IMG/VR virus record: IMGVR_UViG_3300042569_000591
Location: 1-63,251 of that record
Source: a virus
Lineage: Duplodnaviria; Caudoviricetes
DNA length: 63,251 nt
Direction: 5' to 3' (one strand)
In this document: piece by piece, positions 5,542 to 54,767 of the stretch
How the letters are laid out: each line of letters begins with the position of its first letter
How positions within the stretch are numbered: position 1 is the stretch's first letter
Notes under the pieces: model-generated
The model's database searches: none
What the model saw: only the letters and a program-made list of their open reading frames with translations
What the model was told of the DNA's origin: nothing
Made by a program: the position numbers and the translations under genes

Positions 5542-5866
5542 ATGACGAAATTTAGGTGTTTATGACGATTTATGACGGCGATATGACGAAATTATAGGGC
5601 TCAAACCCTTATAGATACTGACTTTATGACGAAATGACGACTTTTTACCTATATTTTCAAAAAAAAAAAAAATACTACTATATATAGTATATACACATAT
5701 GTATATGTGTATATTTTCTCTATATAGGGGTGAAATTTCGTCATATCGTCATCCCTTATTGATAATCAGGGAGTTACGATTTACGTTTCGTCATATCGGG
5801 CTGTTTTTCGTCATATTTAGTCTGTTTTTTAGACGATTTCGTCATATCTGATGACGATTTCGTCAT
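5541..5866. repeat. Putative replication origin: inverted ATGACG/CGTCAT iterons around an AT-rich core
   Basis: ATGACG at 5542, 5562, 5572, 5583, 5626, 5634; CGTCAT at 5739, 5747, 5789, 5809, 5840, 5861; A14 run and TA repeats between. Confidence 0.75.
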
Positions 5867-23038: not shown

Positions 23039-23304
23039 AGATTGTAGAGGCAGCCAAGCAGGCAATAGATGAGTTGATAAAGGTGCTAAAGTCACCTATC
23101 ATCACTCACGCTGAGGATGACATATCTGCAGACAAGATGAAGAACGCTGCATCAGCTAAACGTTTGGCTTTTGAGGATGCTATGTATATGCTCAACAAGA
23201 TTGAGGAGGAAGAGAACAAGGCATCTGAAACACCCGTTGCTGAAGTAACGTTAGGAAAGTCAGGATTCGCTGAGGGCAGAGCTAAAGCTAAAAATGGAAA
23301 ATAG
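23023..23304 (+). CDS. terS: Putative terminase small subunit
   Basis: Helical; KNAASAKRLAFEDA; immediately upstream of TerL. Confidence 0.55.
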   Translation: MSKKIEIVEAAKQAIDELIKVLKSPIITHAEDDISADKMKNAASAKRLAFEDAMYMLNKIEEEENKASETPVAEVTLGKSGFAEGRAKAKNGK

Positions 23305-25513
23305 TTTATATAAAGTCCTTAAGGATCACCTACACAGATCGGTAATTGTGACAAAGAACAAGCACAAGTCTTGGGCTTATGGTTACAATAAAGAGTATGA
23401 CATCATTGTTATATCAAAGGACGGAACTGTAGGAGATATCTACGAGATAAACAACTTAAAGATTGCACTACCTGCCATACCTAAAGAAGTAGAGAGCAGA
23501 GACAACAGATGGCAACCAATAGAATACCCTGCCGAGCTTCAGAAGATTAAGTCAATATTTGATTGGAACCGTAGAGATAATGTGTTCAAGTTGAAGTATG
23601 TCGACATGATCGAGACTGAGTTTGAGCGACGTGAGCAAGGATATTGGTTTATGAATAATGGTGAGCCTACCTACATGACGGGTACTCACTACATGTATCT
23701 TCAGTGGACTAAGATTGACATCGGTCTACCTGACTTCCGTGAGTCCAACCGGATATTCTATATATTCTGGGAGGCATGCAAGGCTGACAACAGATCTTTT
23801 GGTATGTGCTACCTAAAGAACCGTCGTTCAGGTTTCTCATTTATGTCATCTGCCGAGACGTCCAATACAGGTACAATTGTAAGAGATGCTAGACTTGGTA
23901 TTTTATCTAAAACTGGTTCTGATGCTAAAAAAATGTTTACTGATAAGGTTGTACCTATAGTAAGAAATTACCCCTTCTTTTTCAAGCCGATCCAGGATGG
24001 TATGGACAACCCGAAGACGGAGTTGGCCTTCCGGGTTCCTGCGAGTAAGATCACTCGTAAGAATATGGATGAGGAGCGCGATGATGATATAGAGGGGCTA
24101 GATACTACCATCGACTGGAAGAACACTGCAGACAACAGCTATGATGGTGAGAAGCTTCTTTTACTAGTTCACGATGAGAGTGGTAAGTGGGAGAAGCCAG
24201 AGAACATTCTAAATAACTGGCGTGTAACTAAGACATGTCTTAGATTGGGGTCTAAAATTATTGGAAAGTGCATGATGGGTTCAACATCAAATGCGTTGAG
24301 CAAGGGTGGTGAGAACTTTAAGAGGCTATATTACGATAGTGAACCTACCAAGAGATCTGCCAACGGTCAGACTAAATCAGGTTTATATTCTTTGTTTATT
24401 CCAATGGAGTGGAATATGGAAGGATTTATTGACGAGTATGGTTGGCCAGTATTTGATGATCCAAAGAAACCTGTGAAAGGTATCGATGGAGAGGATATAA
24501 CTATGGGTGTCATCACCTATTGGAATAATGAGGTTGCTGCGATGAAGTCAGACTCTGACGCACTCAACGAATACTATCGTCAGTTCCCTAGGACTGAGTC
24601 TCACGCGTTCCGTGATGAGAGTAAGTCATCTTTATTCAACCTAACAAAGATATATCAGCAGATCGACTACAATGACTCCATGATTAAAGATAGAGTATTG
24701 ACTCGTGGTTATTTCCATTGGAAGAATGGTGAGCAAGACAGTGAAGTAATTTGGACGCCTGATCCAAAGGGCAGGTTCTTGGTATCTTGGATACCCGACC
24801 AGAATATGCGCAACAACGTCATTAAGAAGGATGGTAAGTTCTATCCCGGCAATAAAGATATTGGTGTGTTTGGGTGTGACCCTTATGACATATCCGGTGT
24901 AGTTGGAGGAGGTGGGTCCGCTGGTGCGCTACATGGAATCACTCAATTCCATATGCAGAACGCTCCAACAAATCACTTTTTTTTAGAGTATATTGCTCGT
25001 CCTCAGACTGCTGAGATATTTTTTGAAGAGGTGCTGATGGCTTGTTTCTTTTATGGCATGCCTATCCTTGTAGAGAATAATAAGCAGCGTTTGCTGTACC
25101 ATTTTAAGAATAGAGGTTATCGTCAATTTTCATTAAATAGACCTGATAAACACATATCAAAGTTATCAAAAACAGAGCTTGAATTAGGTGGTATTCCAAA
25201 CTCTTCAGAGGATGTAAAACACGCGCATGCTAATAGTATCAACACTTACATTGAAGAATACGTTGGAATTGACGCAGACGGTAATTATCGAGAAAAAGAT
25301 AGTATGGGTGATATGTACTTTACCAAAACTTTAGAAGATTGGGCTCGATTTGATATAAACAACAGGACAAAACATGATGCCTCAATTAGTTCTGGATTAG
25401 CATTAATGGCATCTAGAAAACACCTATTTATACCTGTTAAACAGGAATCTAAAATAAGTGTTAAATTTGTAAGATATAAGAATACTGGCATAAGAAGCGA
25501 AATTATCGAATAA
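23294..25513 (+). CDS. terL: Terminase large subunit
   Basis: KNRRSGFS Walker A, LLVHDE Walker B, GST coupling motif, GCDPYD nuclease motif. Confidence 0.93.
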   Translation: MENSLYKVLKDHLHRSVIVTKNKHKSWAYGYNKEYDIIVISKDGTVGDIYEINNLKIALPAIPKEVESRDNRWQPIEYPAELQKIKSIFDWNRRDNVFKLKYVDMIETEFERREQGYWFMNNGEPTYMTGTHYMYLQWTKIDIGLPDFRESNRIFYIFWEACKADNRSFGMCYLKNRRSGFSFMSSAETSNTGTIVRDARLGILSKTGSDAKKMFTDKVVPIVRNYPFFFKPIQDGMDNPKTELAFRVPASKITRKNMDEERDDDIEGLDTTIDWKNTADNSYDGEKLLLLVHDESGKWEKPENILNNWRVTKTCLRLGSKIIGKCMMGSTSNALSKGGENFKRLYYDSEPTKRSANGQTKSGLYSLFIPMEWNMEGFIDEYGWPVFDDPKKPVKGIDGEDITMGVITYWNNEVAAMKSDSDALNEYYRQFPRTESHAFRDESKSSLFNLTKIYQQIDYNDSMIKDRVLTRGYFHWKNGEQDSEVIWTPDPKGRFLVSWIPDQNMRNNVIKKDGKFYPGNKDIGVFGCDPYDISGVVGGGGSAGALHGITQFHMQNAPTNHFFLEYIARPQTAEIFFEEVLMACFFYGMPILVENNKQRLLYHFKNRGYRQFSLNRPDKHISKLSKTELELGGIPNSSEDVKHAHANSINTYIEEYVGIDADGNYREKDSMGDMYFTKTLEDWARFDINNRTKHDASISSGLALMASRKHLFIPVKQESKISVKFVRYKNTGIRSEIIE

Positions 25514-27936
25514 TGGATAAACCATCAGTTGTTATCTCCTCATTACCCTTTCCGGACCAAATGGCTCCAGATGAAGTCAAGGCGACATATGAGTATGGAT
25601 TAAAGGTAGGAAAAGCCATCGAAGGGGAATGGTTTAAGAGGAAGTCTAATTCAAGCAGATTTTATCAGCAGTGGGGTGAATTCCACCGTTTGAGATTATA
25701 TGCTCGTGGGGAACAGCCTGTACAAAAGTATAAGGATGAAATTGCTGTTAATGGCGATATATCAATGTTAAACTTAGATTGGACTCCGGTTCCAATTATA
25801 CCTAAGTTTGTTGATGTTGTTGTGAATGGTATGTTAGATAGGCCATATACAATTAAGGCTGAAGCTCAAGACATATTATCTGCTGAAAAGAAAAATGCAT
25901 TTCAAGACATGATCGAGTCCGACATGGTCGCTAAAGATTTCTTGATGATGACCAAGGAGACACTTGGTATTGATGCGTTTAATGTTAATCCTGATGAACT
26001 ACCTGCAAATGATGAAGAGCTTTCTTTATATATGCAGATGAACTATAAGCCATCTATTGAGATAGCTGAAGAAATTGCTATCAACACTCTACTCAAAATG
26101 AATAACTATGAGGATGTGTTGAGAGATTACTACTATGATGTTGCCACTTTAGGAATTGGTGTTGCTAAGCATGAGTTTCTAATTAATGATGGCGTTAAAG
26201 TTGAGTATGTAGATCCTGCAAACTGGATACATAGTTATACAGAGAAAAATGATTTCTCTGATTGCTTCTATTTTGGAGAGGTTAAGCAAGTTCATTATAC
26301 TGAGCTTCTTAAAATGAATCCAAACTTGACAGATGAAGACCTTACTGAAATTAAGAACGCTGGATCAGCTTGGTATGACTATTTTCCTATAATTAGAAAT
26401 TATCAAGATGATGCCTTCTTAAATGAGGTTGTTACATTGTTGTATTTTAATTACAAGACTCACAAGAAATTTGTTTGGAAAAAGAAATTACTTGAAAATG
26501 GAGGAGAGCGAGTAATCCGTAAGGATGATAACTTCAACCCACCACCAAACGAAATGTTTGAAGTAGTTGAGGCAGTTCGCGACGTTTGGTATGAAGGTGT
26601 ATTAGTAGGAGGCTCAAACATTATTATCAAATGGGAGATGATGAAGAATATGGTTCGTCCTAAGTCTGCATCACAAAAAGCGCTACCAAACTATATTGCT
26701 TACGCTCCTCGTTACTATAAAGGAAATATAGAGTCATTAGTTAGACGAATGATTCCGTTTGCGGATCAGATTCAGCTTACACATTTAAAGTTACAGCAAG
26801 TTATGGCTCGCGTAGTTCCTGATGGTGTATTCATTGATGCTGATGGTATTAATGAAGTTGATCTTGGAACAGGTGCTGCATATAATCCTGAAGATGCTCT
26901 TAACCTATACTTCCAAACTGGTAGTGTAGTTGGTAGGTCATATACTCAAGATGGTGATTTTAACAACGCTCGTATTCCAATTCAAGAACTAAACTCAAAC
27001 AGTGGTCAAGCTAAAATGGCCGCCTTGATTGGAAACTATAACCATTACCTAAATATGATCCGTGATGTTACAGGTGTAAATGAGGTGCGTGATGCATCCT
27101 CACCACATCCGGATGCTTTAGTTGGTGTTCAGAAGCTTGCCGCACTTAATTCAAATACAGCTACTAGACACATTCTAGATGCTGGTATAAATACTACTAA
27201 GAGAATAGCTGAGTGCTTGTCTATTCGTGTTGCTGACATACTTGAGTACTCTGATTTCGCTGAGGAATTTGCTATGCAGATTGGTAAGTTCAACATGACA
27301 ATACTTGAGGACATTAAGAATTTATATCTTCACAACTTTGGTATTTTCATTGAAGTTTCTCCAGATGAAGAGCAAAAAGCACAGTTAGAGGCAAATATTC
27401 AAATTGCTCTACAGCAGCAGACAATTGATCTAGAGGATGCTATTGATATTAGAATGATTAATAATACCAAGCTAGCAAACGAGATGCTTAAGATGAAGCG
27501 TCGTAAGCGTATGGAGCAAAAGCAGAAAGAAAAAGAGATGGAATTCCAAATGCAAATGCAGACGAATATTCAGTCATCTCAAGCAGCTGCTGAATCCAAA
27601 GCACAGATCATTCAATTGGAAGGTCAGACAAAAGCACAGATCAAACAAATGGAAGTTCAGGGAGACATTCAGAAAATGCAAGCTGAAGCTGAGCTTAAGA
27701 AAGAGCTAATGGCTATTGAGTTCCAGTATAACATGCAGTTAAACGGAATGCAGATGCAGACATTAAAAGATCGTGAGGCTGAGAAGGAGAAGGCAAAAGA
27801 TAAGCGAGTTGACCTACAGGCCACTCGTCAGTCTGAGCTAATTAACCAACGACAAAATAACCTACCACCTCAAAACTTTGAGAGTACTGAAGACTCACTT
27901 GATGGCTTCGATTTAGAAGCGTTTGGACCTAAATAA
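25513..27936 (+). CDS. Portal protein
   Basis: Follows TerL; IIPKFVD; coiled-coil C-terminus. Confidence 0.88.
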   Translation: MDKPSVVISSLPFPDQMAPDEVKATYEYGLKVGKAIEGEWFKRKSNSSRFYQQWGEFHRLRLYARGEQPVQKYKDEIAVNGDISMLNLDWTPVPIIPKFVDVVVNGMLDRPYTIKAEAQDILSAEKKNAFQDMIESDMVAKDFLMMTKETLGIDAFNVNPDELPANDEELSLYMQMNYKPSIEIAEEIAINTLLKMNNYEDVLRDYYYDVATLGIGVAKHEFLINDGVKVEYVDPANWIHSYTEKNDFSDCFYFGEVKQVHYTELLKMNPNLTDEDLTEIKNAGSAWYDYFPIIRNYQDDAFLNEVVTLLYFNYKTHKKFVWKKKLLENGGERVIRKDDNFNPPPNEMFEVVEAVRDVWYEGVLVGGSNIIIKWEMMKNMVRPKSASQKALPNYIAYAPRYYKGNIESLVRRMIPFADQIQLTHLKLQQVMARVVPDGVFIDADGINEVDLGTGAAYNPEDALNLYFQTGSVVGRSYTQDGDFNNARIPIQELNSNSGQAKMAALIGNYNHYLNMIRDVTGVNEVRDASSPHPDALVGVQKLAALNSNTATRHILDAGINTTKRIAECLSIRVADILEYSDFAEEFAMQIGKFNMTILEDIKNLYLHNFGIFIEVSPDEEQKAQLEANIQIALQQQTIDLEDAIDIRMINNTKLANEMLKMKRRKRMEQKQKEKEMEFQMQMQTNIQSSQAAAESKAQIIQLEGQTKAQIKQMEVQGDIQKMQAEAELKKELMAIEFQYNMQLNGMQMQTLKDREAEKEKAKDKRVDLQATRQSELINQRQNNLPPQNFESTEDSLDGFDLEAFGPK

Positions 27937-29729: not shown

Positions 29730-31148
29730 ATGGCTGGTACATTACAATCATCTCCGGGTCCATTATTGACCCCGAGCTCTGTAAAGGCAACATTGCCTAC
29801 AAACTACATCACAAATTTTGATTTCTTGAATCAATATTTGCCTGACACTTACGAGCAAGAATTTGAGCGTTACGGTAACCGTTCAATCGCATCTTTCTTG
29901 CGTATGGTAGGTGCAGAACTTCCTACTAACTCTGACCTCATCAAATGGGCAGAACAAGGTCGTCTTCACACTAAGTATACTGCAGTTACTGCTGTTGGTG
30001 CTTCTGGTGGTGATGATACAGTTACTTTTGACATCGGTACAGGTACATGTGTATTCCGCATGGGTCAAACTGTATTCTTATCTAACAATGCATCTGCTAC
30101 ATCTTCTTACAAAGGTGTAATTACTGCATTACCTGCTGCTGATCGCTTTACTGTAGCTTTCTACAACGCTGGTGGTATTTCTGGTGGTGACACTGGAGCT
30201 ACATTCACTGCTTTTGTTTACGGTTCTGAATTCAAAAAAGGTGACTCTGGTATGGATGGATCTTTGGAAGCTCAAGATCTTTTCTTCGACAACAAGCCAA
30301 TCATCATCAAAGATAAATATACTGTCTCTGGTTCTGACATGGCTCAAGTTGGTTGGGTTGAAGTGACTACTGAGAACGGTGCTACTGGTTACTACTGGTA
30401 CATGAAGTCTGAGCACGAAACTCGTCTACGTTTCGAAGACTATCTTGAAATGGCAATGGTTGAAGGTGTTCCTGCTGAAGCAAACTCTGGTGCTGCTGCA
30501 GCTCTTGGTGTTTCATCTCCAACACCACCTGCGACTACAGGTGCTGGTACTCAAGGTATGTTTGCTGCTATCGAGTCTCGTGGTAACATCTGGGCAGGTG
30601 GTAACCCATCTTCTTTGGCTGACTTCGATACAATCGTACAACGTCTTGACAAGCAAGGTGCTATCGCTGAGAACGTATTGTTCTTAAACCGTCAGTTCTC
30701 TTTTGACATCGACGATATGTTGGCTGCTCAAAACTCTTACGGTGCAGGTGGTACTTCTTACGGTTTGTTTGACAACAGCGAAGAAATGGCTCTAAACCTT
30801 GGTTTCTCTGGATTCCGTCGTGGTTACGAGTTCTACAAGACAGATTGGAAATACCTTAACGATGCAACCCTTCGTGGTGGTCTTGTTGGTGGTGCTATCA
30901 ATGGTGTCTTGGTTCCTGCTGGTACAATGAGCGTTTACGATCAAGTACTTGGTAAGAATGCAAAACGTCCATTCCTTCACGTTCGCTACCGTGCTTCTGA
31001 AGCTGAAAATCGTCGTTACAAAACGTGGATGACTGGTTCTGCCGGTGGTGCCGCTACAAGCGACCTCGATGCAATGGAAGTTAACTTCTTGTCAGAGCGT
31101 GCGCTTTGTACAATGGGTGCTAACAACTTCTTCATCTTCAAAGGATAA
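29730..31148 (+). CDS. Major capsid protein
   Basis: Position, size, strongly biased codons, W-EQGRLH motif, followed by a terminator. Confidence 0.88.
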   Translation: MAGTLQSSPGPLLTPSSVKATLPTNYITNFDFLNQYLPDTYEQEFERYGNRSIASFLRMVGAELPTNSDLIKWAEQGRLHTKYTAVTAVGASGGDDTVTFDIGTGTCVFRMGQTVFLSNNASATSSYKGVITALPAADRFTVAFYNAGGISGGDTGATFTAFVYGSEFKKGDSGMDGSLEAQDLFFDNKPIIIKDKYTVSGSDMAQVGWVEVTTENGATGYYWYMKSEHETRLRFEDYLEMAMVEGVPAEANSGAAAALGVSSPTPPATTGAGTQGMFAAIESRGNIWAGGNPSSLADFDTIVQRLDKQGAIAENVLFLNRQFSFDIDDMLAAQNSYGAGGTSYGLFDNSEEMALNLGFSGFRRGYEFYKTDWKYLNDATLRGGLVGGAINGVLVPAGTMSVYDQVLGKNAKRPFLHVRYRASEAENRRYKTWMTGSAGGAATSDLDAMEVNFLSERALCTMGANNFFIFKG

Positions 31149-44900: not shown

Positions 44901-47900
44901 ATGCCAAACGATAATCTTAAGCAGTACTATTCTTACTTAAAGTCAAGTGGCGCTGATGTAGCTCCTACATATGATGCTTTTGCAACAACTTTAAGCAATG
45001 AAGAAAATGCGAAAAAGTACCACTCATATTTATTAAATAATGGTTTTGACACACCAAAGTCATACGACTCATTTTCTCAGACATTAGGATTAAAAAAAAA
45101 AGATCTTACGGTATCTGGATCGGCAAAACCTTCATCGGTAAAATTATCGACCACAACAACAATAAAGCCTACGGCATCTTCATCTTCAACAGGACTTCCT
45201 GATGGATTATATTCTTTTCCAGGGCAAGAAAATGCTACCTATAAAAAGGAAAAAGGAGATTGGTCTGTAGCATTTGATGGCTCATATAAATACATACCGC
45301 TATACAAAGGTGATGTACAAGCTCGTGTTGCTAACCTTGAAAAGAATGCTGTATCACTTGAACAATATGGTTTTGAAACACAACCTAGAAAAGAAGAGCA
45401 ATTAAAATATACAGAAGCTCCAAAACCAAAGTCAATCGCCAAACCAAAAACTGAAGCACAGAAGAAAGAGCAACAGTTATTTGAAACAGAATTCAAGGCA
45501 TTAGATCTTAATGATCCTGAATACTTGAGAAGAAAAGCTAGATCAGAAAAGATAGATCAATTATTAGCTCCAGTAACCGGAGATTTGATAGATTACAATG
45601 AAGGTAATGTTGTACCTGTCATTGATAATATAATTAAGCAATACCCATACTTAGAAGTATCTGAATCAGGTGTTGGATATGATGAATTAAAAATTCGTAA
45701 TAAAGTTACTGGCGAGAAAGCTGTCATTAATCTAGACAACTGGACTTCTGGAAGAGATGAGGAAGAGGCTAAGCAATTAAGAGCTTTCTTAGATGTTCAA
45801 ATTAACTCAAAAGATTATGTAGCTCAGAAACAGAAAGTAGATGAATTACAGGCTCAAATGCAGGATGCAACACCTACTCAACGTATTGACTTATCACAGC
45901 AATTATTAGAAGAGAAAGCTAAACTTAACGATCTTTCAGGGGCTAGATACAACTACGCAAAGAATGACAAGTATAAAGCTGCTGCTATCTATGATAAGAA
46001 TGCAAAGGATAATATTAAAGTAGATTATGCTAATCTTCAATTAAGATCAATTGACTACGCTGAAAAAGTAAAAAGCTATAATGAGTGGAATCAGACAGTA
46101 AATGATGCTAGAAGTAAAGGCTTGATCACTGAAGAGCAATACAATACAGAATATGCTCCAAAGTTACAGGCTGAGAAGAACATGTTAAATGATGAGAGAT
46201 TTCAAATCAATGAGTCATTTAATCAGGTAAGAAGTGATAGTACTTCTATTGACAATATAGCAGCAAGTGAGTATGCTATACAAGCGGAGAAAGGCAACGT
46301 TCTTAGTGGAGCAACATACTCATTCTTAGAAGGAGCTGAGAGCTCATTAAGATTTTTATTAGAGACAGGTGACTTTAAAGATGGTGAATTCAAAGGTTTT
46401 TTAACTCAAGCCGCACCTGGATCAATTAGTGATGTATATACTTCAGCTGAAGGAAGAAATGCTTTTGAGCAAATTATATTTGGTCTTGCAAACTCAGGTG
46501 GATCGGCTCTTGTTAGTGCAGCATCTGGATCCACATTATTGGGATTATATGCTTCTTCATATGTCAACATGAAGGACCAAATGAGCACCCCACAATTTAA
46601 GGATGTTCCAGAATACCAGAAAATATTGATGTCTGGTATTTATGGTGCCACTATTGGATATCTTGAAAATAAAGGTATTGGTAAGTGGTTTCAGAAGACA
46701 CCTGCTGGTAAAGGGCTTACTAATTGGATTTTAAAGAAAACAATATCAGAGCTAGGCAAAGATGCAACGGCTGAAACAATTGAGCTTACTATTAAAAAAA
46801 ATCTAGGAGCTGCCATAAAAAATGGCCTTATACAAGTAACAGCATCTGGATTAGTTGAGGGTTCTACCGAACTTGCTCAAGAAGCCACAGATATGGCGTA
46901 CAAAGAGGTATTCAATATAATGTCTGAAAAGAAATACTTTGACAATCCGACATCTTGGACAGATGTTGCTGATCGATTAGGTAAATCTTTTGTACTTGGT
47001 TTTGCTGGAGGTGCTGGAATGCAATCAATTACTCAAGCCACTCAGGTAGGCATGAATGAATTGGATAAAAATCAGATCAACAATATTACTGAACTGATTA
47101 ATAGTCCTGAGTTAAAGGATGTATTTAGACTCAACCTTAAGGATCAAATACTATCTGGCCAAATATCAAAAGAAGAAGCCAAAAGACAGATTCAAAAGAT
47201 AAATGAGATTGAAGGTACTCTTAACAAAATACCTGAAAAAGTAGATAGATTCCAAGCGTTCAAGTTAATCAATGAGCGCGATGCGATACAAAAAGAAATT
47301 GCAGGGAAAGACCCTGCTCTTGTCGCTGCTCAAACAGAGCGCGTCAATGCTATTAATGATGAATTAAAACAATTAAGTTATGCCGTTCAAGAGCAAGCAA
47401 CAAGTGAAGTACCTGTACAGCCAGGAGCCAAAATTGGCGGAGAAGTGGCGCAAGGAAAACCCGAAACAGGACTTAAAGAAACTACCCAAGAAGGTAGCCA
47501 AGCCCAAGAAGTAGAACAAGGTAAGTTTGTTGCAGAGGAAGCAACTCGTTTAGCGCAAGAAAATATAAGTACTGAGCAAAGACAATCTCTTGTAGATAGA
47601 CTTTATGAAGACCCAATTGCTTATGCTAGAGAAAATAATACTCCTGGTTCCCCTTCTGAAAACTTTATAAACTCATTAGAACAACCTATTAATATAGAAA
47701 ATAAATCTACTAAAGAAATAGCCAGCGAACTTAATACTATAGATAATACAGATTTAATAAAACAATTAGGTATAGAATCTAACTGGGATATGACAGCAGA
47801 AGGCGACCTTCTTGCTGGCAATGATCCTGTTTTGGCTTATACACAAAGAAAACTACCTCAATGGAATAGAGAAAGCCAACTAGGTAACATAAATCCTGAG

Positions 47901-50900
47901 TCAGAATTAACTTACGATATAGTTAAGGGAAGATTTGGATCGGTTGATAATAAGAACGTAGTAACTGCTAAAGATGAGAATGGAGTTATTGTAGGGGTTG
48001 TTGAATTGGCTAGTAATGGAGGAATAGAACATATTGCTGTAGCACCCGAATTTAGAAGAAAAGGAGTAGCCAATAAATTAATAGAAGTTTTAAAAGATAA
48101 CAATCCAAACCTTGATCTATCTAAAACAAAATTAAGAAGCAAGGGTTTTGAAAAAGTATTCTCTAACACTATAATTGCTGAAGCATATAAAAAAGCCAAG
48201 CAAGATGGTAGCAATCCAACGCTAGTCAAGGCAGTTGAGGATTCTTTAAGTAATAAAAATTTGGTTAGTAGCCAAAAACAAACTAAATTTGCACAAGATG
48301 AAACAGGAAACATACAACCCGAACGCACCGGAGACGGAAGAGGACGGACTGAGAGCAGGAAATTTACGCCTCTTGAAGGCGCGCCAGCAGTTCCAGGCAT
48401 TAACGGGCCGGACCCACAGCTTGTTGGAGTCGCAGAAAAGTACGCAGCAGACAATGGAATCGAGCTCAAAAGACAGTCAGAGTACGTCGAAGTAGACGAG
48501 CAAAGAGCCAAAAGAATAGCCGACGCTTACGAGCAGATGGCTAATAATCCTCAGGATCCAAAAGTAAAAGAAGCATACCAAGATCTCATAAATCAAACAA
48601 TTGCTCAGTATCAAGCATTAGTTGATGCCGGGTATAAGTTTTGGTTTATGGACCTAAATATTCCAAGCAATGAGGAGTATGCAGCAAGCCCATACAATGC
48701 CTTAAGAGACTTAAGACAGAATAAAGAGATGGGCGTATTCCCAACTACTGATGGATACGGAGAAGGTGACATAACACAAGCGCAGATCGACGCTAACCCA
48801 TTACTAGCTGACACAGGTATCAAATGGCCTGTGGGTGGACTAGATGGAGAAATGAAACCTGTTCTTGCAAATGACTTGTTCAGAGCAGTTCACGATGCAT
48901 TCGGCCATGGTCTTGAGGGTGCTGGGTTTAGAGCAAGAGGCGAAGAGAATGCATGGCAGGCTCACGTCAGATTGTTTACAGGACCTGCAGTCGGAGCTAT
49001 TACTAGTGAGACTAGAGGTCAGAACTCTTGGTTAAATTATGGTCCTTTTGGAGAAACTAATAGAACAGCAAAAGTAGAAGACACTGTATTTGCTGATCAG
49101 AAGATTGGCCTTATGCCTGAGTGGACTTGGTCTGAAGGTCGTGCAGGTGATATGGAGGAAGATATTTTACAAGCAGACACTAAAGATGCTACTAATCTAC
49201 AGAAAGCACTCGATGCTTTAGATAAGATTGAGAAGGATCTTGATAAGTTTGGAAAAGAAACTCTAGGCGTAAACATTCCAGTTGCTTTAGCTAAAACAAT
49301 TGTCAAGGCTGTTAAAGCGCTAGTTAAAGCCGGCGTAACACTTGAGCAAGCGATTAAACAAATTGCCGCTGAATACAATCTATCTGACAGAGATGTAAAA
49401 TCATTACTCACGCCTACGAAAGTATCTGATATTGACGTAAATGAAGTTAGAGCCAAGGCTAGACCTGGTAAACGTATATCAAAAGGATTATCAGTTAAAA
49501 CAGTTGCTGGTAAAAAGGTTATTGAGGAAACTGAAGATTTGTCTATAGAATACGTTAAGAAAAATGCCCCAAAGGCGTTTATTGCTAACGCTAATATTAT
49601 TTCCAAGTATCCACTAGTTGCCGGTAAGAAGAAGTTTAAAACAGCAACGACAGTTGAGCAAGCTCAAGAGATATATGATGTATTTGTTAGAGAAGTAGCT
49701 GATAACCTTAACTACTTAATGGCTGAATTTAAACCAGAGTACAGAGAAATATCAACTCTTTGGTATGATGGAGCTAATGCCATAGCAAATGATTTTGCTG
49801 CACAGTTTGGCGTATCAGCAGAGCAAGCAGCAGGTATTATTGCCGCCATGTCTCCTCAGAAAGACTGGTATCAAAACGTTCGTTTAGCTGAGATGGTATT
49901 GATGGCCTACAAAGATAATCCAGTCATGACTAAAGAAATGGTTGATTATCAGAAGAGTGTAAATGAAAAAGGACTTTACGATGGAGCTGAGTCAGCTGGA
50001 AAGAAATTAAAAAAAGCACAAAAAGAATACAACGAATCTAGAACTAAAGCCAATAAAGAAACTCTAGAAGAGGCTAAAGTTAAAATGCAGGAAGCTATTG
50101 AAAAAGCTGACGCTGTAATAACTATGCTTAATAAGTATATAGGTAAAAAATTAAATGAAGTTCCTGCATTTGTTCAGCCATATATGGTTAGAACATATCA
50201 TGAGGTGAACACAACTAAAGATTACAATATTGTAGCTCCTGATGGTAGCGTTCAAGGCGTCGCTAAAAATAAAGATGGATTAAATGCAAAAATTGCATGG
50301 GGATCTTATGTTGAGATTGGAAAGGCTGTATCAATTAAAAATGACGGTAGCCAGGAAAATATCACAAGATCTTTAGGTGAGATGCATAAGATTAGAAACT
50401 TCTATAACAACATCATTGATCCAATGAGCAAGGACGGTGATGTGACAATGGATACACATGCGATCGCTGCAGCATTGTTACTTCCTGTGTCAGGTAAATC
50501 AATTCAGGTTATTCAAAATTTTGGAGGCAAAGGAACTGCTGCTTCAAATTCATTTGGTATTAAAGGTTTGTATTATGCTTATGCAGATGCATACGCATTA
50601 GCTGCCAAAGAAGCCGGTCTATTACCAAGACAAGTACAAAGTATTACCTGGGAGGCTGTACGCGGTTTATATACAGACACATTTAAAAATAATAAAGCTG
50701 AAGTAGCAAAAATTAATAACATTTGGAAAGACTATCAAGATGGAAAAATTACAATCGATGAAGCAAGAGAACAAGCCAAAGAATCAGCCGGTGGAATCAA
50801 AGATCCAACCTGGGCAGGACCTGTTCAGACAGAGCTTGGAGAAGGCGCTGGGACGCAAGGTGTCGAAGGAAGAGGAGATGGAGATGAACGAGATACTGTC

Positions 50901-53900
50901 GGGGGGACCGATGGAGGAGGAGTTCTAACTGCAGACACTAAAGACAAAACAAACCTAAAGAAAGCCCTTGATGTATTAAACAAAGCTGACGACGACTTAG
51001 CCAAGTTTGGTAGAGAAACACTTGGTATCAATATACCTGTAGCTACAATGAGAGCTATTATTAAGCTTGCTAAAGTATTAGTTAAGACTGGTATAACTCT
51101 ACAAGACGCAATCATTCAAGCTGCTGAGCAGAAAAATGTATCCAAAAAAGATGCATTGAATGCTATTAAGTTTATATCTGAGACAATTAAACAACCAATT
51201 AAAAAAGTTGTTATTAATGAAATGGCAGCACTCAAGTCACAAATTAGACTTGAAGCTAGAGCCGCTCGTGAAGCTAAGGGCGATATAAATGCTAAAAGAA
51301 AAGCACTTGCAGCTGCTATTACCAGTATGGTAAGACAAGGAAAGATTACAGCTCTTCAAGCTAGAAGTATTATTAATAAGGTAAGTAAAGTTAATCTTGA
51401 TAATCCTATAATGGTTGATAGATTGATTAGCTATGCAGAAAGAGTATTTGACAGAGCTGACTACCAAGAGACATTAAGCAAGGCAGCTAAGATCAGAAAG
51501 TCAATCAAAAAAGCCATGAAGTCAAAAGACTTACAGGCTGAGGTTGCTGCCATGGCTAAGAAGTTCTCTAGTGTTGATCCGTTTATGGTTGAGGATATTG
51601 ATCAGTACATTGAGAATGCAGAGAAAGTACTTAATGCTGTTCGTCCTGTCAGAGATACAGATGTATCACTTCGTCAAGCTGTTGACATTGAAGCTATTAG
51701 TGAATACACAACAGCTCAGTTTGAGCGTCAAGAGGCAAATAAAAAAGCTGAATTACTTGCATTAAATAAATATTTAGTAGACTCTGGTATTGTTACTGAA
51801 GACATGACTGCCAAGGAGATCCAAGAGATGATCGACATTATTGCATCTGAAGAGTATGAGGTTGAAAACGCTGATAAGAAATTAAATTTCTTAAAAAATC
51901 GTTTTGAATTTATGGCAGGTGTGATAAAAGAGATGATTGTGAATAACAGAGATATATTTACAGACGAACCACTTGATCTAACTCAAAGCCAAAAAGATTT
52001 AATGAATGAAGTTCTTAAGTTTGACATTGATAAATTATCAGTTAAGCAGGCTGCTCAAGTTCTTGAAGCGATGGATAACTTCATCAACAATGGCATTACT
52101 AGTGGTCTTGAAGCTGTGGTTAAAAATTACATTGGTACAGAGAACGCTAATAAACTAGCCGCATCTGGTCTTAAGTCTAGACCACTTAAGATGTATTGGA
52201 ATAAAGCTGTAGGCCGTTTCTTCGGAGAGCAGTTTGTTTCATTGCCATTGCTCATCGAGAGAATGTTTCCTGGAATGAAAAAAGGTCTTAGATTCATGTC
52301 AGAAATGGGACTTACTGATGTAATCAGAGGAGTTGCTAAAGCTGACAGGGAGCATAAGATGATCGTAAAAGATTATACTAGTCAGGAATTCTCAAAAGGT
52401 AAGGGGTTTATGAAGGCTGAGAATGTATACGAGAGAGGTATGATTGCCTTCTTAAGTAGAAATTTAGCCGGAACCAAAACAGAAATGCGTAACGAATTCT
52501 TACGTCGCATTAAGATGATTGAAGAATCTATCAATGCCTTGATGACCGGATCAGAGACAGAGAGAAAAATGGGTGAAGCTTATCAAAAAGTATATGACAA
52601 GCTAAAAGTAGATAGCCAGGATCTTGACGTCATCAAAGCTAATGCTGAGCAAATGAATCTTGACGCTGTTAATTGGATGACACAACAATGGGCTGAAAAA
52701 TATAGCGACCTATCTGACATTAGTTTGTCTGTATACAACGCAATATTAGGAAGCGACACCAACTATACCCCAGATAGATATAAAGCTCTTGACGAGGCTG
52801 ATATTGAGTTGGATGAAAACTTATTGCAGAAAGGCAGCGCGTTTATGGGTGGTCTTGAGTACACTGACAAGAATAAGTCAGGTGTATTGATAGAGACAAC
52901 TAGACCAAAGGCTTTGCCAAAAGGTCGTTTTGTTAGTCTTGACTTTGACGTCAATAACTTCTCTAGTTTAAAAGGCGCGATGATTGACATTGAAACAGCT
53001 CCGGCTATTCGTCAAGTTGATGGATTTATCAAGTCAGACGGATATAAGAAAATGGTCAATGGTGACGACAGAAAAATTCTTACTCGTCGTATAAATAACT
53101 ATATCATTTCTGTAAAAGGAAAGACTAGCTTCAATCGTGACAGCATGAGATCAGTTGAGCGATTAGCCAACTTCTTAGGTAGTCTTGGTGTTGGTAAAGC
53201 GTTAGGTGGTTTTGACCAAACTATTAAGCAGACTGCTCCGGTTATTATCAACACATTGATTAATGCCGGGCGTTTTGATGGTCTTAATATGGAAATGAAT
53301 GAAGCCATCAACCGATCAGGTATGCCAATTGCAAATCGTGGTATTGAGGCTATATCAGGTGTTGAATCTGTTGACGCGTTGATTGATAAGAAAGGAGCAA
53401 CAGCTGCAGAGATAGCTAAGGCTATTGAGAAAGTCAGTCAAATGTATATGAAGGCTTTGCTATCTAAGCCGGATGTATGGGTTGCTAGATCGTCATTTAT
53501 TTCTTACTATAAGAATTACTTGAAGAACAATGGCATGTCAACTAACATTGACTGGAAATCACATGAGTGGAACCAGGATGCATTAAACTATGCTCAAATG
53601 ATGGTTGACCGTCAGCAAAACATTTCAGATGAAAAGCTAGCCGGTTCATTTATGAGCTCTCCAGATCCATGGAAAAGTGTTACTAGAAAGGTTATGCTTC
53701 CATTTGCTACGTTCATCATTAACCAAAAGAACCGTATGCACAATGACTTTGTAGCTTTATTTGGCAGAGGTGCAGAGACTTCTTTAGAAGATAAAAAGAA
53801 AGCAGCTAGATCATTGATTGGATTAAGTGCTGAGATGTTGGCATATCAAGCTATTGCTTACTTCATCAAGAACCAAATTTATGACAATGTAGCTGCTATG

Positions 53901-54767
53901 ATCACAGGTGAAGATGATGAGGAAGAGAAAAAAGAGCGCTCATTCTTCGGAATCAAGATGACGAATAAGCAATGGAATGCTACTAAGTTCCCTGTCAAGA
54001 GTTTAATATCTGACATTTTATCACCTTTCCCATTATTCGATGACGCAGTAGTACTTGGTTTTGATAAGCTGATGAGTAACTTCCCAATGATATCTGATGA
54101 AGATATTAAGCAAGCTATACAAGATCAAAATGATGCTAGAATGCTAAAGGGTGGTGAGCCTATGGATGCAGAGCAAGAGACTAATTTTGTAAAAGCATTG
54201 AAAAGCAAAAATACATACGCTGTTACATTCCAAAATGAAAGCATAGGCCGTCAGTATGGTGTGCCTGGAATTGCTTTTGATACATACACTGAGCTTGCTG
54301 AAATGTCTAGATTAGCATACACAGGTGAATTCGAAGATGATATGGGGTATGGTCCTAAGCTTAAGCATATTTCAAAGAAAGATCAAGAGATAGTCAAGTG
54401 GACACTATTGCCGATGATGCTATACTCTACAGGATTGGTTCCTAAAGACGCTGGTGTGGTTTCTAGAAAGGTAGTCAATACCGTTAAGAAAAGAGCCATC
54501 AGTGACAATAAGTTTAAGAATGTTGGCTATTTAAAAGATGAACTTGGCCGTAAGCCAAAAGATTGGGAAGAAAGTTTGGTGATGAATACCACCAAGAAGA
54601 TACCTACGCTTGTAGACGCTATTAAATTTGCTGAAAGATTTGGCGGCCTGACAGAAAGCCAGGGCAAAGAATACGCCAAACTTATAGAATTGACAGGTGA
54701 TTACGGTTACATGGACTTGAAGAGAATTCAAGCCAATGAGACCGCTGATCAAATAATAAAGAAGTAA
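44901..54767 (+). CDS. 3288-aa polyvalent ejection protein (GNAT-like, HDxxGH and HhH-glycosylase-like domains)
   Basis: IAVAPEFRRKGVA; FRAVHDAFGH...GEENAW; WYD...AAMSPQ...KIRNFY...TMDTH...QSITW. Confidence 0.85.
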   Translation: MPNDNLKQYYSYLKSSGADVAPTYDAFATTLSNEENAKKYHSYLLNNGFDTPKSYDSFSQTLGLKKKDLTVSGSAKPSSVKLSTTTTIKPTASSSSTGLPDGLYSFPGQENATYKKEKGDWSVAFDGSYKYIPLYKGDVQARVANLEKNAVSLEQYGFETQPRKEEQLKYTEAPKPKSIAKPKTEAQKKEQQLFETEFKALDLNDPEYLRRKARSEKIDQLLAPVTGDLIDYNEGNVVPVIDNIIKQYPYLEVSESGVGYDELKIRNKVTGEKAVINLDNWTSGRDEEEAKQLRAFLDVQINSKDYVAQKQKVDELQAQMQDATPTQRIDLSQQLLEEKAKLNDLSGARYNYAKNDKYKAAAIYDKNAKDNIKVDYANLQLRSIDYAEKVKSYNEWNQTVNDARSKGLITEEQYNTEYAPKLQAEKNMLNDERFQINESFNQVRSDSTSIDNIAASEYAIQAEKGNVLSGATYSFLEGAESSLRFLLETGDFKDGEFKGFLTQAAPGSISDVYTSAEGRNAFEQIIFGLANSGGSALVSAASGSTLLGLYASSYVNMKDQMSTPQFKDVPEYQKILMSGIYGATIGYLENKGIGKWFQKTPAGKGLTNWILKKTISELGKDATAETIELTIKKNLGAAIKNGLIQVTASGLVEGSTELAQEATDMAYKEVFNIMSEKKYFDNPTSWTDVADRLGKSFVLGFAGGAGMQSITQATQVGMNELDKNQINNITELINSPELKDVFRLNLKDQILSGQISKEEAKRQIQKINEIEGTLNKIPEKVDRFQAFKLINERDAIQKEIAGKDPALVAAQTERVNAINDELKQLSYAVQEQATSEVPVQPGAKIGGEVAQGKPETGLKETTQEGSQAQEVEQGKFVAEEATRLAQENISTEQRQSLVDRLYEDPIAYARENNTPGSPSENFINSLEQPINIENKSTKEIASELNTIDNTDLIKQLGIESNWDMTAEGDLLAGNDPVLAYTQRKLPQWNRESQLGNINPESELTYDIVKGRFGSVDNKNVVTAKDENGVIVGVVELASNGGIEHIAVAPEFRRKGVANKLIEVLKDNNPNLDLSKTKLRSKGFEKVFSNTIIAEAYKKAKQDGSNPTLVKAVEDSLSNKNLVSSQKQTKFAQDETGNIQPERTGDGRGRTESRKFTPLEGAPAVPGINGPDPQLVGVAEKYAADNGIELKRQSEYVEVDEQRAKRIADAYEQMANNPQDPKVKEAYQDLINQTIAQYQALVDAGYKFWFMDLNIPSNEEYAASPYNALRDLRQNKEMGVFPTTDGYGEGDITQAQIDANPLLADTGIKWPVGGLDGEMKPVLANDLFRAVHDAFGHGLEGAGFRARGEENAWQAHVRLFTGPAVGAITSETRGQNSWLNYGPFGETNRTAKVEDTVFADQKIGLMPEWTWSEGRAGDMEEDILQADTKDATNLQKALDALDKIEKDLDKFGKETLGVNIPVALAKTIVKAVKALVKAGVTLEQAIKQIAAEYNLSDRDVKSLLTPTKVSDIDVNEVRAKARPGKRISKGLSVKTVAGKKVIEETEDLSIEYVKKNAPKAFIANANIISKYPLVAGKKKFKTATTVEQAQEIYDVFVREVADNLNYLMAEFKPEYREISTLWYDGANAIANDFAAQFGVSAEQAAGIIAAMSPQKDWYQNVRLAEMVLMAYKDNPVMTKEMVDYQKSVNEKGLYDGAESAGKKLKKAQKEYNESRTKANKETLEEAKVKMQEAIEKADAVITMLNKYIGKKLNEVPAFVQPYMVRTYHEVNTTKDYNIVAPDGSVQGVAKNKDGLNAKIAWGSYVEIGKAVSIKNDGSQENITRSLGEMHKIRNFYNNIIDPMSKDGDVTMDTHAIAAALLLPVSGKSIQVIQNFGGKGTAASNSFGIKGLYYAYADAYALAAKEAGLLPRQVQSITWEAVRGLYTDTFKNNKAEVAKINNIWKDYQDGKITIDEAREQAKESAGGIKDPTWAGPVQTELGEGAGTQGVEGRGDGDERDTVGGTDGGGVLTADTKDKTNLKKALDVLNKADDDLAKFGRETLGINIPVATMRAIIKLAKVLVKTGITLQDAIIQAAEQKNVSKKDALNAIKFISETIKQPIKKVVINEMAALKSQIRLEARAAREAKGDINAKRKALAAAITSMVRQGKITALQARSIINKVSKVNLDNPIMVDRLISYAERVFDRADYQETLSKAAKIRKSIKKAMKSKDLQAEVAAMAKKFSSVDPFMVEDIDQYIENAEKVLNAVRPVRDTDVSLRQAVDIEAISEYTTAQFERQEANKKAELLALNKYLVDSGIVTEDMTAKEIQEMIDIIASEEYEVENADKKLNFLKNRFEFMAGVIKEMIVNNRDIFTDEPLDLTQSQKDLMNEVLKFDIDKLSVKQAAQVLEAMDNFINNGITSGLEAVVKNYIGTENANKLAASGLKSRPLKMYWNKAVGRFFGEQFVSLPLLIERMFPGMKKGLRFMSEMGLTDVIRGVAKADREHKMIVKDYTSQEFSKGKGFMKAENVYERGMIAFLSRNLAGTKTEMRNEFLRRIKMIEESINALMTGSETERKMGEAYQKVYDKLKVDSQDLDVIKANAEQMNLDAVNWMTQQWAEKYSDLSDISLSVYNAILGSDTNYTPDRYKALDEADIELDENLLQKGSAFMGGLEYTDKNKSGVLIETTRPKALPKGRFVSLDFDVNNFSSLKGAMIDIETAPAIRQVDGFIKSDGYKKMVNGDDRKILTRRINNYIISVKGKTSFNRDSMRSVERLANFLGSLGVGKALGGFDQTIKQTAPVIINTLINAGRFDGLNMEMNEAINRSGMPIANRGIEAISGVESVDALIDKKGATAAEIAKAIEKVSQMYMKALLSKPDVWVARSSFISYYKNYLKNNGMSTNIDWKSHEWNQDALNYAQMMVDRQQNISDEKLAGSFMSSPDPWKSVTRKVMLPFATFIINQKNRMHNDFVALFGRGAETSLEDKKKAARSLIGLSAEMLAYQAIAYFIKNQIYDNVAAMITGEDDEEEKKERSFFGIKMTNKQWNATKFPVKSLISDILSPFPLFDDAVVLGFDKLMSNFPMISDEDIKQAIQDQNDARMLKGGEPMDAEQETNFVKALKSKNTYAVTFQNESIGRQYGVPGIAFDTYTELAEMSRLAYTGEFEDDMGYGPKLKHISKKDQEIVKWTLLPMMLYSTGLVPKDAGVVSRKVVNTVKKRAISDNKFKNVGYLKDELGRKPKDWEESLVMNTTKKIPTLVDAIKFAERFGGLTESQGKEYAKLIELTGDYGYMDLKRIQANETADQIIKK
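47380..47514 (+). CDS. Nested +1-frame gene, 44-aa basic protein MPFKSKQQVKYLYSQEPKLAEKW...
   Basis: Hand translation; A-rich upstream; resembles the MPFKS type of standalone small phage proteins. Confidence 0.65.
   Translation: MPFKSKQQVKYLYSQEPKLAEKWRKENPKQDLKKLPKKVAKPKK
48298..48495 (+). CDS. Candidate nested +1-frame gene (65 aa) with internal -7 element at 48284-48291
   Basis: TAAATTTG-cacaag-ATG; GC-elevated stretch. Confidence 0.45.
   Translation: MKQETYNPNAPETEEDGLRAGNLRLLKARQQFQALTGRTHSLLESQKSTQQTMESSSKDSQSTSK
49152..51130 (+). repeat. Diverged ~70-codon direct repeat (~49152-49370 and ~50911-51130)
   Basis: ADTKD-TNL-KALD-L-K---DL-KFG-ETLG-NIPVA occurs twice. Confidence 0.85.
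50740..50928 (+). CDS. Candidate nested +1-frame gene (62 aa)
   Basis: ATG start; overlaps a Gly-rich linker; stops at the start of repeat copy 2. Confidence 0.35.
   Translation: MEKLQSMKQENKPKNQPVESKIQPGQDLFRQSLEKALGRKVSKEEEMEMNEILSGGPMEEEF

Follow-up and report, generated by a model that had tools for sequence, protein, structure and literature searches.

The window analysed here, a 63,251-nucleotide segment of phage genome (Duplodnaviria; Caudoviricetes; IMG/VR record IMGVR_UViG_3300042569_000591) with 38% G+C, carries in the 5' part of a giant virion-protein gene a run of ten adenines that, judging from its conservation among relatives, is very probably a genuine recoding site giving rise to a second protein of about 100 residues. 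Both proteins would start from the same ATG, at position 44901. Messages read without a shift would yield the 3288-residue virion protein, and a -1 shift inside the run would yield a short form made of the N-terminal two-repeat module (hereafter N-module), three lysines and a 33-residue tail, rich in aromatic and basic residues and predicted to fold as a β-meander. The shift might be produced mostly by slippage of RNA polymerase on the run, a proposal to which we give even chances. On a homopolymer of 9-11 bases the enzyme would slip and add one A to some of the transcripts, which ordinary translation would then decode; as a consequence of the added base, the ribosome would find itself in the -1 frame. 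The frame-0 reading of the overlapping segment would serve as a tolerant Ser/Thr linker in the giant protein, and the site would set the ratio of short to long form. That slippage takes place, at what level and with what efficiency, and what the short form does are points that we infer from the comparisons described below.

The run occupies positions 45092..45101 of the plus strand and is made of the last base of a TTA codon followed by AAA AAA AAA, the segment 45090-45104 reading TTA AAA AAA AAA GAT in frame with the ATG at 44901. An initial annotation of this DNA had pointed to the A10 tract in its TT-A10-G context, to the two-repeat domain ahead of it and to the low-complexity Ser/Thr stretch that follows in frame 0. 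All three are present: the repeats fall within residues 1-64, and the frame-0 linker, DLTVSGSAKPSSVKLSTTTTIKPTASSSSTGLP, extends over 45102..45199 (plus strand), where it is overprinted by the tail frame. The -1 reading is likewise as quoted in that annotation, with 33 codons (45101..45199, plus strand) specifying RSYGIWIGKTFIGKIIDHNNNKAYGIFIFNRTS, the predicted C-terminus of the short isoform, up to a TGA stop at 45200..45202 (plus strand). With 67 residues from frame 0 and 33 from the tail, the predicted slipped product is 100 residues long, which agrees with the size of about 100 residues claimed for a short product alongside the 3288-residue form. The entire open stretch of the -1 frame covers 50 codons (45050..45202, plus strand), holds no ATG, GTG or TTG upstream of the tail, and is the longest of the 453 stop-to-stop open reading frames (ORFs) that the giant gene has in this frame. 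Starting at a codon picked at random in that gene, the chance of the -1 frame staying open for at least 33 codons is 1.0-1.5%, and for at least 24 codons 2.8%. AAA accounts for 62% of the lysine codons in the gene, whose two other KKK sites both include AAG. The run has the length associated with transcriptional slippage, namely about nine or more A or T inside an ORF. Contigs from three other lake-metagenome runs span it with 0 gaps; A10 is therefore no assembly slip of this record. Among the sequencing runs listed as containing the stretch, none is of RNA.

The run proved to be conserved far beyond the window. Queries with N-terminal sequences collected 33 loci from viral and metagenome contigs, to which scans of viral contigs with the N-termini of P0051, P0062 and P0063 contributed a sole new sequence (L033). 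Seven loci lack the site, four because they are distant or matched elsewhere (L013, L014, L016 and L031) and three because they start at a conserved domain (L015, L024 and L025); the other 26 loci and the window provided 24 distinct sequences with the site. All three lysine codons are AAA in every one of them (72/72 codons). The run is A10 in 23 sequences and A9 in one (L022), and in 23 of the 24 the tenth A is the synonymous third position of TTA, GTA, CCA or ATA, codons that represent just 29-45% of their families in the giant gene. The run occurs in different codon phases but is never shorter than nine: it starts at codon position 3 in most sequences, at position 2 in Flavobacterium phage elemoE (GAA AAA AAA AAT, A10) and in MW202828.1 (CAA AAA AAA AAA, A11), and at position 1 in L022 (A9). 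Every relative that has the module has a run of A9-A11, and in every genome examined N-module, run and tail occur together or not at all. Past the run, all 24 sequences keep the -1 frame open for 30-47 codons; the +1 frame is open for 7-56 codons without conservation. No ATG, GTG or TTG is found between the preceding -1 stop and the tail in any of the 24, and this stop lies 2-20 codons upstream, often just 2-5. With no start codon available and a stop so near, the tail frame can be entered only by a shift within the run.

The same arrangement is common to the Flavobacterium elemo phages, Cellulophaga phages phi38:1 and phi18:3-like phages, and Maribacter phage Panino. In the GenBank phages (MW202828.1, elemoE, phi38:1, Panino and the phi18:3 group) the tail frame is open for 24-43 codons. 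In MW202828.1 the A11 run (continuing into GAC) stands past a two-repeat module and leads into a 25-codon -1 ORF; in elemoE the A10 run, in its other phase, is followed by 43 codons ending ...TYIGWRKTKNNWGFGIFCWER; in gp101 of phi38:1 A10 comes after ELDEFGIP x2 and the tail is RKRRAFGIEFYLWSGSFKFGWFRL. Of the 60 elemo records listed, 56 match a 400-base query spanning the run with 100% identity. MT497078.1 and about 30 other elemo records share their first base, which falls in the 5' part of the giant gene, about 90 bases ahead of A10; this common start could reflect either an assembly convention or a true genome end.

The deposited run is A9 in Panino, phi18:3, phi19:3, phi46:3 and phi13:2. 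In these genomes the N-module forms a separate small ORF (e.g. gp122), the giant body lies in the N-module's -1 frame with a weak annotated start 40-126 bases further on, and the tail (...KWFIGFFRPEGGGWFFGISRKSD; ...SAIGFGTSSRSWFFGWCTK) occupies the N-module's +1 frame. This is the A10 layout minus one A and admits two readings: either slippage is needed for the giant protein itself, or the run was undercalled. Under either reading, the annotation of Panino and the phi18:3 group that splits N-module and giant body at A9 (L039, 14310-14633, NC_021794.1 gp122/gp123; L040, L041 and L042; L036, 31586-31768, PP540027.1) is probably wrong. The Panino annotation adds a minus-strand ORF across the junction between N-module and giant body.

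The -1 frame is not only open but also under selection. In a codon alignment of 11 close relatives, 31 gap-free columns of the overlap (from the run to the -1 stop) were compared with 81 columns downstream. Mean pairwise diversity at frame-0 positions 1/2/3 is 0.09/0.15/0.15 in the overlap and 0.21/0.17/0.45 downstream, the drop at position 3 being highly significant (0.15 vs 0.45; Mann-Whitney p = 7e-7). Pairwise codon differences that are synonymous in frame 0 number 168/529 in the overlap and 939/1698 downstream; those synonymous in the -1 frame, 194/529 and 129/1785. In the per-column table, variation switches back to the ordinary frame-0 pattern exactly at the column of the -1 stop. Because variation sits at the third positions of the -1 frame and reverts where that frame ends, the pattern is the signature of an overlapping coding frame, with purifying selection acting on the -1 frame; the alternative-frame ORF is both conserved and selected. 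Across clades, the nucleotides past the run diverge widely while the open length and the peptide pattern of the -1 frame are kept, as can be seen from the -1 peptides of the window (...TFIGKIIDHNNNKAYGIFIF...), L026 (...YFIGALIQHNHKAYGVFIFKRRK...), L027 (...CFIGYTRNGSKEAFGIFISR), L008 (...WFFGYYRDSSKTVIGFIKTRR...), L022 (...HFIGWYSDSKKSVFGYIRQR) and L033 (...CFVGYIKAKDGSKAFGIVIKSRR...). In a 17-sequence tail alignment (A5), F11, G13 and G25 are invariant, defining an F-x-G...G motif with a basic end. Among 11 divergent lineages, and with identical bases, 18/55 pairs reach z > 3 against shuffles in the tail frame as compared with 2/55 in frame 0 (Wilcoxon p = 5e-5, the pairs not being independent). 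The initial annotation had proposed looking in homologs for a conserved A-run and for better conservation in the -1 frame. Both were found, as AAA AAA AAA in 24/24 sequences and as a frame-0 synonymous diversity suppressed over the overlap only; AAG codons or early -1 stops, named there as outcomes that would speak against recoding, were seen in 0/24.

AlphaFold2 models the aligned tails as a three-stranded antiparallel β-meander (strands 2-7, 10-16 and 22-28) with a mean predicted local distance difference test score (pLDDT) of 84. The 33-residue model found no match in the PDB with Foldseek at E <= 0.001, four tails compared with Pfam at E up to 10 hit 0 families, and a word search for the -1 peptide in proteins of 89-2000 residues returned none. 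A complex prediction for two tail copies scored 0.02, which amounts to no verdict and is used neither way. A profile of the tail run against 1.84 billion representative proteins gave 14 matches. Six of these are small proteins of 67-97 residues ending in the tail, five of which join N-module, lysine run and tail in one frame: P0070 (97 residues) with the window's kind of N-module, P0069, P0079 and P0072 with the KYPEY kind, and P0076 with the IKPVIVADDGIN x2 kind. The AlphaFold2 model of P0070 comprises two helix-loop-helix units (four helices, pLDDT about 80), a disordered lysine linker and three strands (mean pLDDT 70.5). Such in-frame fusions are rare, with 1-2 contigs each, mostly of 634-2194 bases, one reaching 27,940 bases; variation in run length or homopolymer errors may explain them, and they display the appearance of the predicted product. 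The remaining eight matches are large proteins, and five of the six that were scanned are Flg_new (Listeria-Bacteroides) repeat proteins. It is only with its positions 6-20, the F-x-G-W/Y hairpin, that the tail profile matches this repeat (PF09479), and the tails do not match the whole 65-residue repeat model; the likeness is a resemblance between β-hairpins, not family membership.

At the other end of the predicted short protein, the N-module (codons 1-64; 44901..45092, plus strand) is a tandem of two repeats, NLKQYYSYLKSSGADVAPTYDAFATTL and NAKKYHSYLLNNGFDTPKSYDSFSQTL, common to the long product and the predicted short one. A survey that took in 44901-45092 of the window, L002-L012, L022, L034, L036, L038, L039 and L041, as well as P0037 and P0076, showed that the module before the run nearly always consists of a 10-30-residue motif duplicated in tandem, and that it exists in at least ten unrelated kinds (e.g. 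WTPPSD...FVPPSD, LPSPEEVLG x2, KYPEYK x2, ELDEFGIP x2 and IKPVIVADDGIN x2). Otherwise near-identical phages differ in the kind of N-module they carry, with the junction exactly at the A-run. In contigs that the same metagenomes contain from other phages, the match is confined to 45091-45125 and lost upstream, and phi13:2 matches phi18:3 from the run onward only. We regard the N-module as a putative exchangeable binding cassette, whose partner the short form would share with the giant protein.

If the site is one of recoding, the shift could be made by either of two machines. The same two proteins would result if the ribosome, reading an unchanged mRNA, shifted by -1 on A AAA AAA or slid on the AAA lysine codons, a serious contender that we nonetheless place behind polymerase slippage. 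A slippery heptamer of the X XXY YYZ type, A AAA AAA, stands in the zero frame in every arrangement, including relatives with another phase of the run, and three consecutive AAA codons are the context in which ribosome sliding is reported in E. coli (PMC4363877). On the other hand, seven A's would be enough for the ribosome, yet 9-11 are kept in any phase, including the synonymous tenth A in four codon families; this phase-independent length rule fits polymerase slippage better than a ribosomal heptamer. A downstream stimulatory RNA structure, usual though not obligatory for -1 ribosomal frameshifting, was not detected as a conserved stem-loop or pseudoknot: RNAalifold predicted 0 pairs in 16 sequences around the run, and the local fold of the window has z = -0.64. 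Moreover, were A9 real in the genomes that carry it, a ribosome would have to shift by +1 or -2 to reach the tail and by -1 to reach the giant body, for which added A's offer a simpler account. Bacterial RNA polymerase is described as slipping efficiently on runs of 9 A or T, a property used productively in Thermus dnaX (PMC5009743). Transcriptional slippage is thus favored because no conserved RNA structure is found, because the run exceeds seven bases in any phase, and because RNA polymerase slips on nine A or T. As for the initial annotation, which had left undecided whether the shift is ribosomal or transcriptional, its recoding interpretation is supported by the comparative evidence, with the polymerase as the likelier of the two machines.

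It is tempting to extend slippage by the polymerase into a more ambitious scheme, to which we attach a rather low probability, in which the run acts both as a three-way dial and as a recombination joint. Slippage would then spread over all three frames, the lineage-tuned lengths A9, A10 and A11 would set the amounts of giant and short protein, the run would be the crossover point for cassettes, and the short isoform would be an adaptor loading the giant protein into the capsid via the shared cassette. It would follow that in A9 lineages even the giant protein depends on slippage.

More improbable still is that there is no recoding at all, and that the run and about 100 bases behind it are kept as nucleic acid, as the joint for cassette exchange, or as a lysine patch with its linker, the open -1 frame being a by-product of frame-0 codons rich in Ser/Thr. 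The junctions described above are what such a joint would leave behind: unrelated N-modules meet the conserved downstream sequence exactly at the run, as do the contigs matching 45091-45125 only and the phi13:2/phi18:3 pair. In addition, TCN, ACN and GCN codons hardly yield stops in the -1 frame. Yet a nucleic-acid signal should not allow the nucleotides to diverge between clades while the -1 length, the F-x-G...G motif and the basic end persist, nor does it account for variation concentrated at -1 third positions and ending exactly at the -1 stop. A lysine patch, for its part, would need neither AAA at 72/72 codons nor a synonymous tenth A. Finally, the tail is modelled confidently, and its profile recovers small proteins carrying it.

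A switch at the level of DNA, as in phase variation, would operate through replication slippage among A9, A10 and A11, giving mixed genomes that encode either the giant or the short form. Deposited genomes do include all three lengths, and a few metagenome ORFs join N-module and tail in one frame. However, a search of IMG/VR with a pattern allowing A9-A11 returned A10 in 9/9 matches, the elemo records are nearly uniform across the run (the 56/60 given above), and the three other metagenome runs carry A10 free of gaps. The in-frame fusions are rare and perhaps homopolymer errors, and a genome without its giant virion protein would probably not be viable. We consider this mechanism very improbable. 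Finally, that the tail ORF is a separate small gene with its own internal start, for which the open frame itself and nothing else speaks, is hardly credible in view of the missing start codons and nearby stops in 24/24 sequences and of an ORF listing that holds no start-codon ORF there.

Several observations weigh against recoding by the polymerase and should be set beside the evidence for it. All of the evidence for coding in the -1 frame fits a ribosomal shift equally well, since the protein made would be the same. Members of a clade share ancestry, so that 24 sequences and 55 pairs overstate the number of independent cases. Three relatives (L015, L024 and L025) have neither N-module nor run nor tail; the short form must therefore be dispensable in those phages. 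The giant ORF of these three starts (near 1432) directly at a conserved PDG-Y-x-x-PG domain, and no stand-alone gene for the short protein was found upstream of the giant ORF in L015, L024, L025, L013 or L016. The A9 genomes come from platforms prone to homopolymer errors and might be undercalls of A10. The Cellulophaga phage genomes were reportedly obtained by 454 sequencing. Panino was sequenced by Nanopore alone, according to PMC11590407. In phi18:3, gp122 (the N-module ORF) is annotated as a hypothetical protein and not as a product found by tandem mass spectrometry (MS/MS), whereas gp123 is annotated as found. Codon usage, too, is a poorer witness than it appeared to be. The initial annotation had likened the C-ending codons of the -1 stretch to those of the capsid gene, and for Tyr, Phe, Asn, Asp, His and Ile the counts hold (16/18 and 88/121, respectively); their meaning is ambiguous, because a C at -1 position 3 is the middle C of a frame-0 Ser/Thr codon, and the C-rich third positions of the tail frame in part mirror those codons.

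The gene in which the run lies (44901..54767, plus strand; identified from the ORF listing, Pfam and homologs) is the end of a virion-gene block that also includes genes for terminase (23294-25513), portal (25513-27936), a capsid-like structural protein (29730-31148) and other virion proteins. Its product has Pfam matches to GNAT (about residues 1000-1075) and DUF7178 (about residues 1597-1678). Its 64 homologs, 1872-3565 residues long, carry ART-PolyVal, LPD23, DUF6782 and ddrB-ParB at equivalent places, and it is because of this swapping of domains that the product is a "polyvalent"-type virion protein: very large, with several mutually unrelated domains, enzymatic or "LPD", that differ from one relative to the next. 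As in the polyvalent proteins of phages and conjugative elements, we find here a giant multidomain product, enzymatic domains exchanged between homologs, and a gene that ends the virion module. Its counterparts in Cellulophaga phage records are annotated as virion structural proteins, in phi18:3 on the basis of MS/MS. Other long/short pairs produced by recoding suggest, by analogy, that the short form could serve as an accessory factor in the assembly, loading or dosage of the giant protein.

When named phages are ranked by capsid similarity, MW202828.1, a Manatee Spring podovirus, comes closest (63%), ahead of Maribacter phage Panino (54%) and the Flavobacterium elemo phages (49%); Cellulophaga phi38:1 and the Calle phages (41%) and the phi18:3 group (25%) lie further off. 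The start of the giant gene gave no match to a phage collection in blastn and tblastn searches, and a Pfam scan of the tails, the N-module and the first 167 residues past the overlap gave nothing above noise. The capsid gene (29730-31148) has a strong preference for C-ending codons that is not seen in the portal gene (74/246) or in the rest of the giant gene (254/843); it looks like the codon adaptation of a most highly expressed gene. A second A-run in the giant gene, A8 at 46794-46801, is followed by a -1 frame open for 18 codons and a +1 frame that stops at once. The longest homopolymer of the window, A14 at 5659-5672, lies in an AT-rich intergenic stretch and adjoins palindromic repeats of the TATATA/GTATATAC type; this region may be a promoter or an origin.

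If confirmed, the site would add a well-conserved case, testable in culture, to the short list of recoding sites known in phages. It lies in the largest gene of widespread aquatic podophages of Flavobacteriia, among them the genus Elemovirus, the Pervagoviridae, the Pachyviridae, Panino and many uncultured freshwater relatives, and it would imply a small protein absent from every annotation. It also suggests that in the phi18:3 group and in Panino a single gene is divided in two at a homopolymer in the genomes as deposited. Beyond this, the locus would be a clean example of overprinting, with a folded β module laid over a Ser/Thr linker, and might offer a way to approach the dosing or loading of giant polyvalent virion proteins. 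Titles and abstract openings in the literature on polyvalent phage proteins and frameshifting show nothing relevant, and the literature on Cellulophaga and Flavobacterium phages, on Panino and on transcriptional slippage offers no description of the site, although supplementary peptide tables could hold relevant peptides. Those parts of the texts that were accessible make no mention of Cellulophaga, Flavobacter or Bacteroidetes (PMC5009743), of gp101, frameshift or slippage (PMC13288928), or of frameshift or homopolymer (PMC11590407). The class of mechanism is known; what appears to be new is this particular case, together with its breadth and the folded module that is overprinted.

These properties invite comparison with several known systems. 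In Thermus thermophilus, dnaX produces τ and γ by transcriptional slippage on a 9-base homopolymer (PMC5009743). As is predicted for the phages, a run of at least nine bases inside an ORF there yields, from one start, a long in-frame product and a shorter one with a short alternative C-terminus, and a heterogeneous mRNA population is the expectation in both. In Thermus, the alternative frame adds a few residues before the stop, whereas here it encodes a conserved, foldable module of 24-47 residues; furthermore, the gene is that of a phage virion protein, and slippage is predicted from sequence. Homopolymer slippage at the level of mRNA is also reported to generate two length variants from tssM of Citrobacter rodentium, a large structural gene (PMC4256274), as is proposed here. 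There, the frameshift rescues a prematurely interrupted gene, while most of the phage genomes encode the long form in frame, and it is the short one that slippage would produce. The tssM case differs further in that the site described here is conserved across several phage groups. Textbook cases of -1 programmed ribosomal frameshifting are provided by dnaX of E. coli and by the G/GT pair of phage lambda, in both of which two proteins share their N-terminal part in a ratio fixed by a slippery site rich in A and lysine codons. The G/GT pair serves virion assembly, and in lambda it is the longer protein that results from the frameshift. The slippery site of E. coli dnaX is flanked by stimulatory elements. 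In contrast to these two systems, the phage run has no conserved structure that we could find and is longer than a heptamer.

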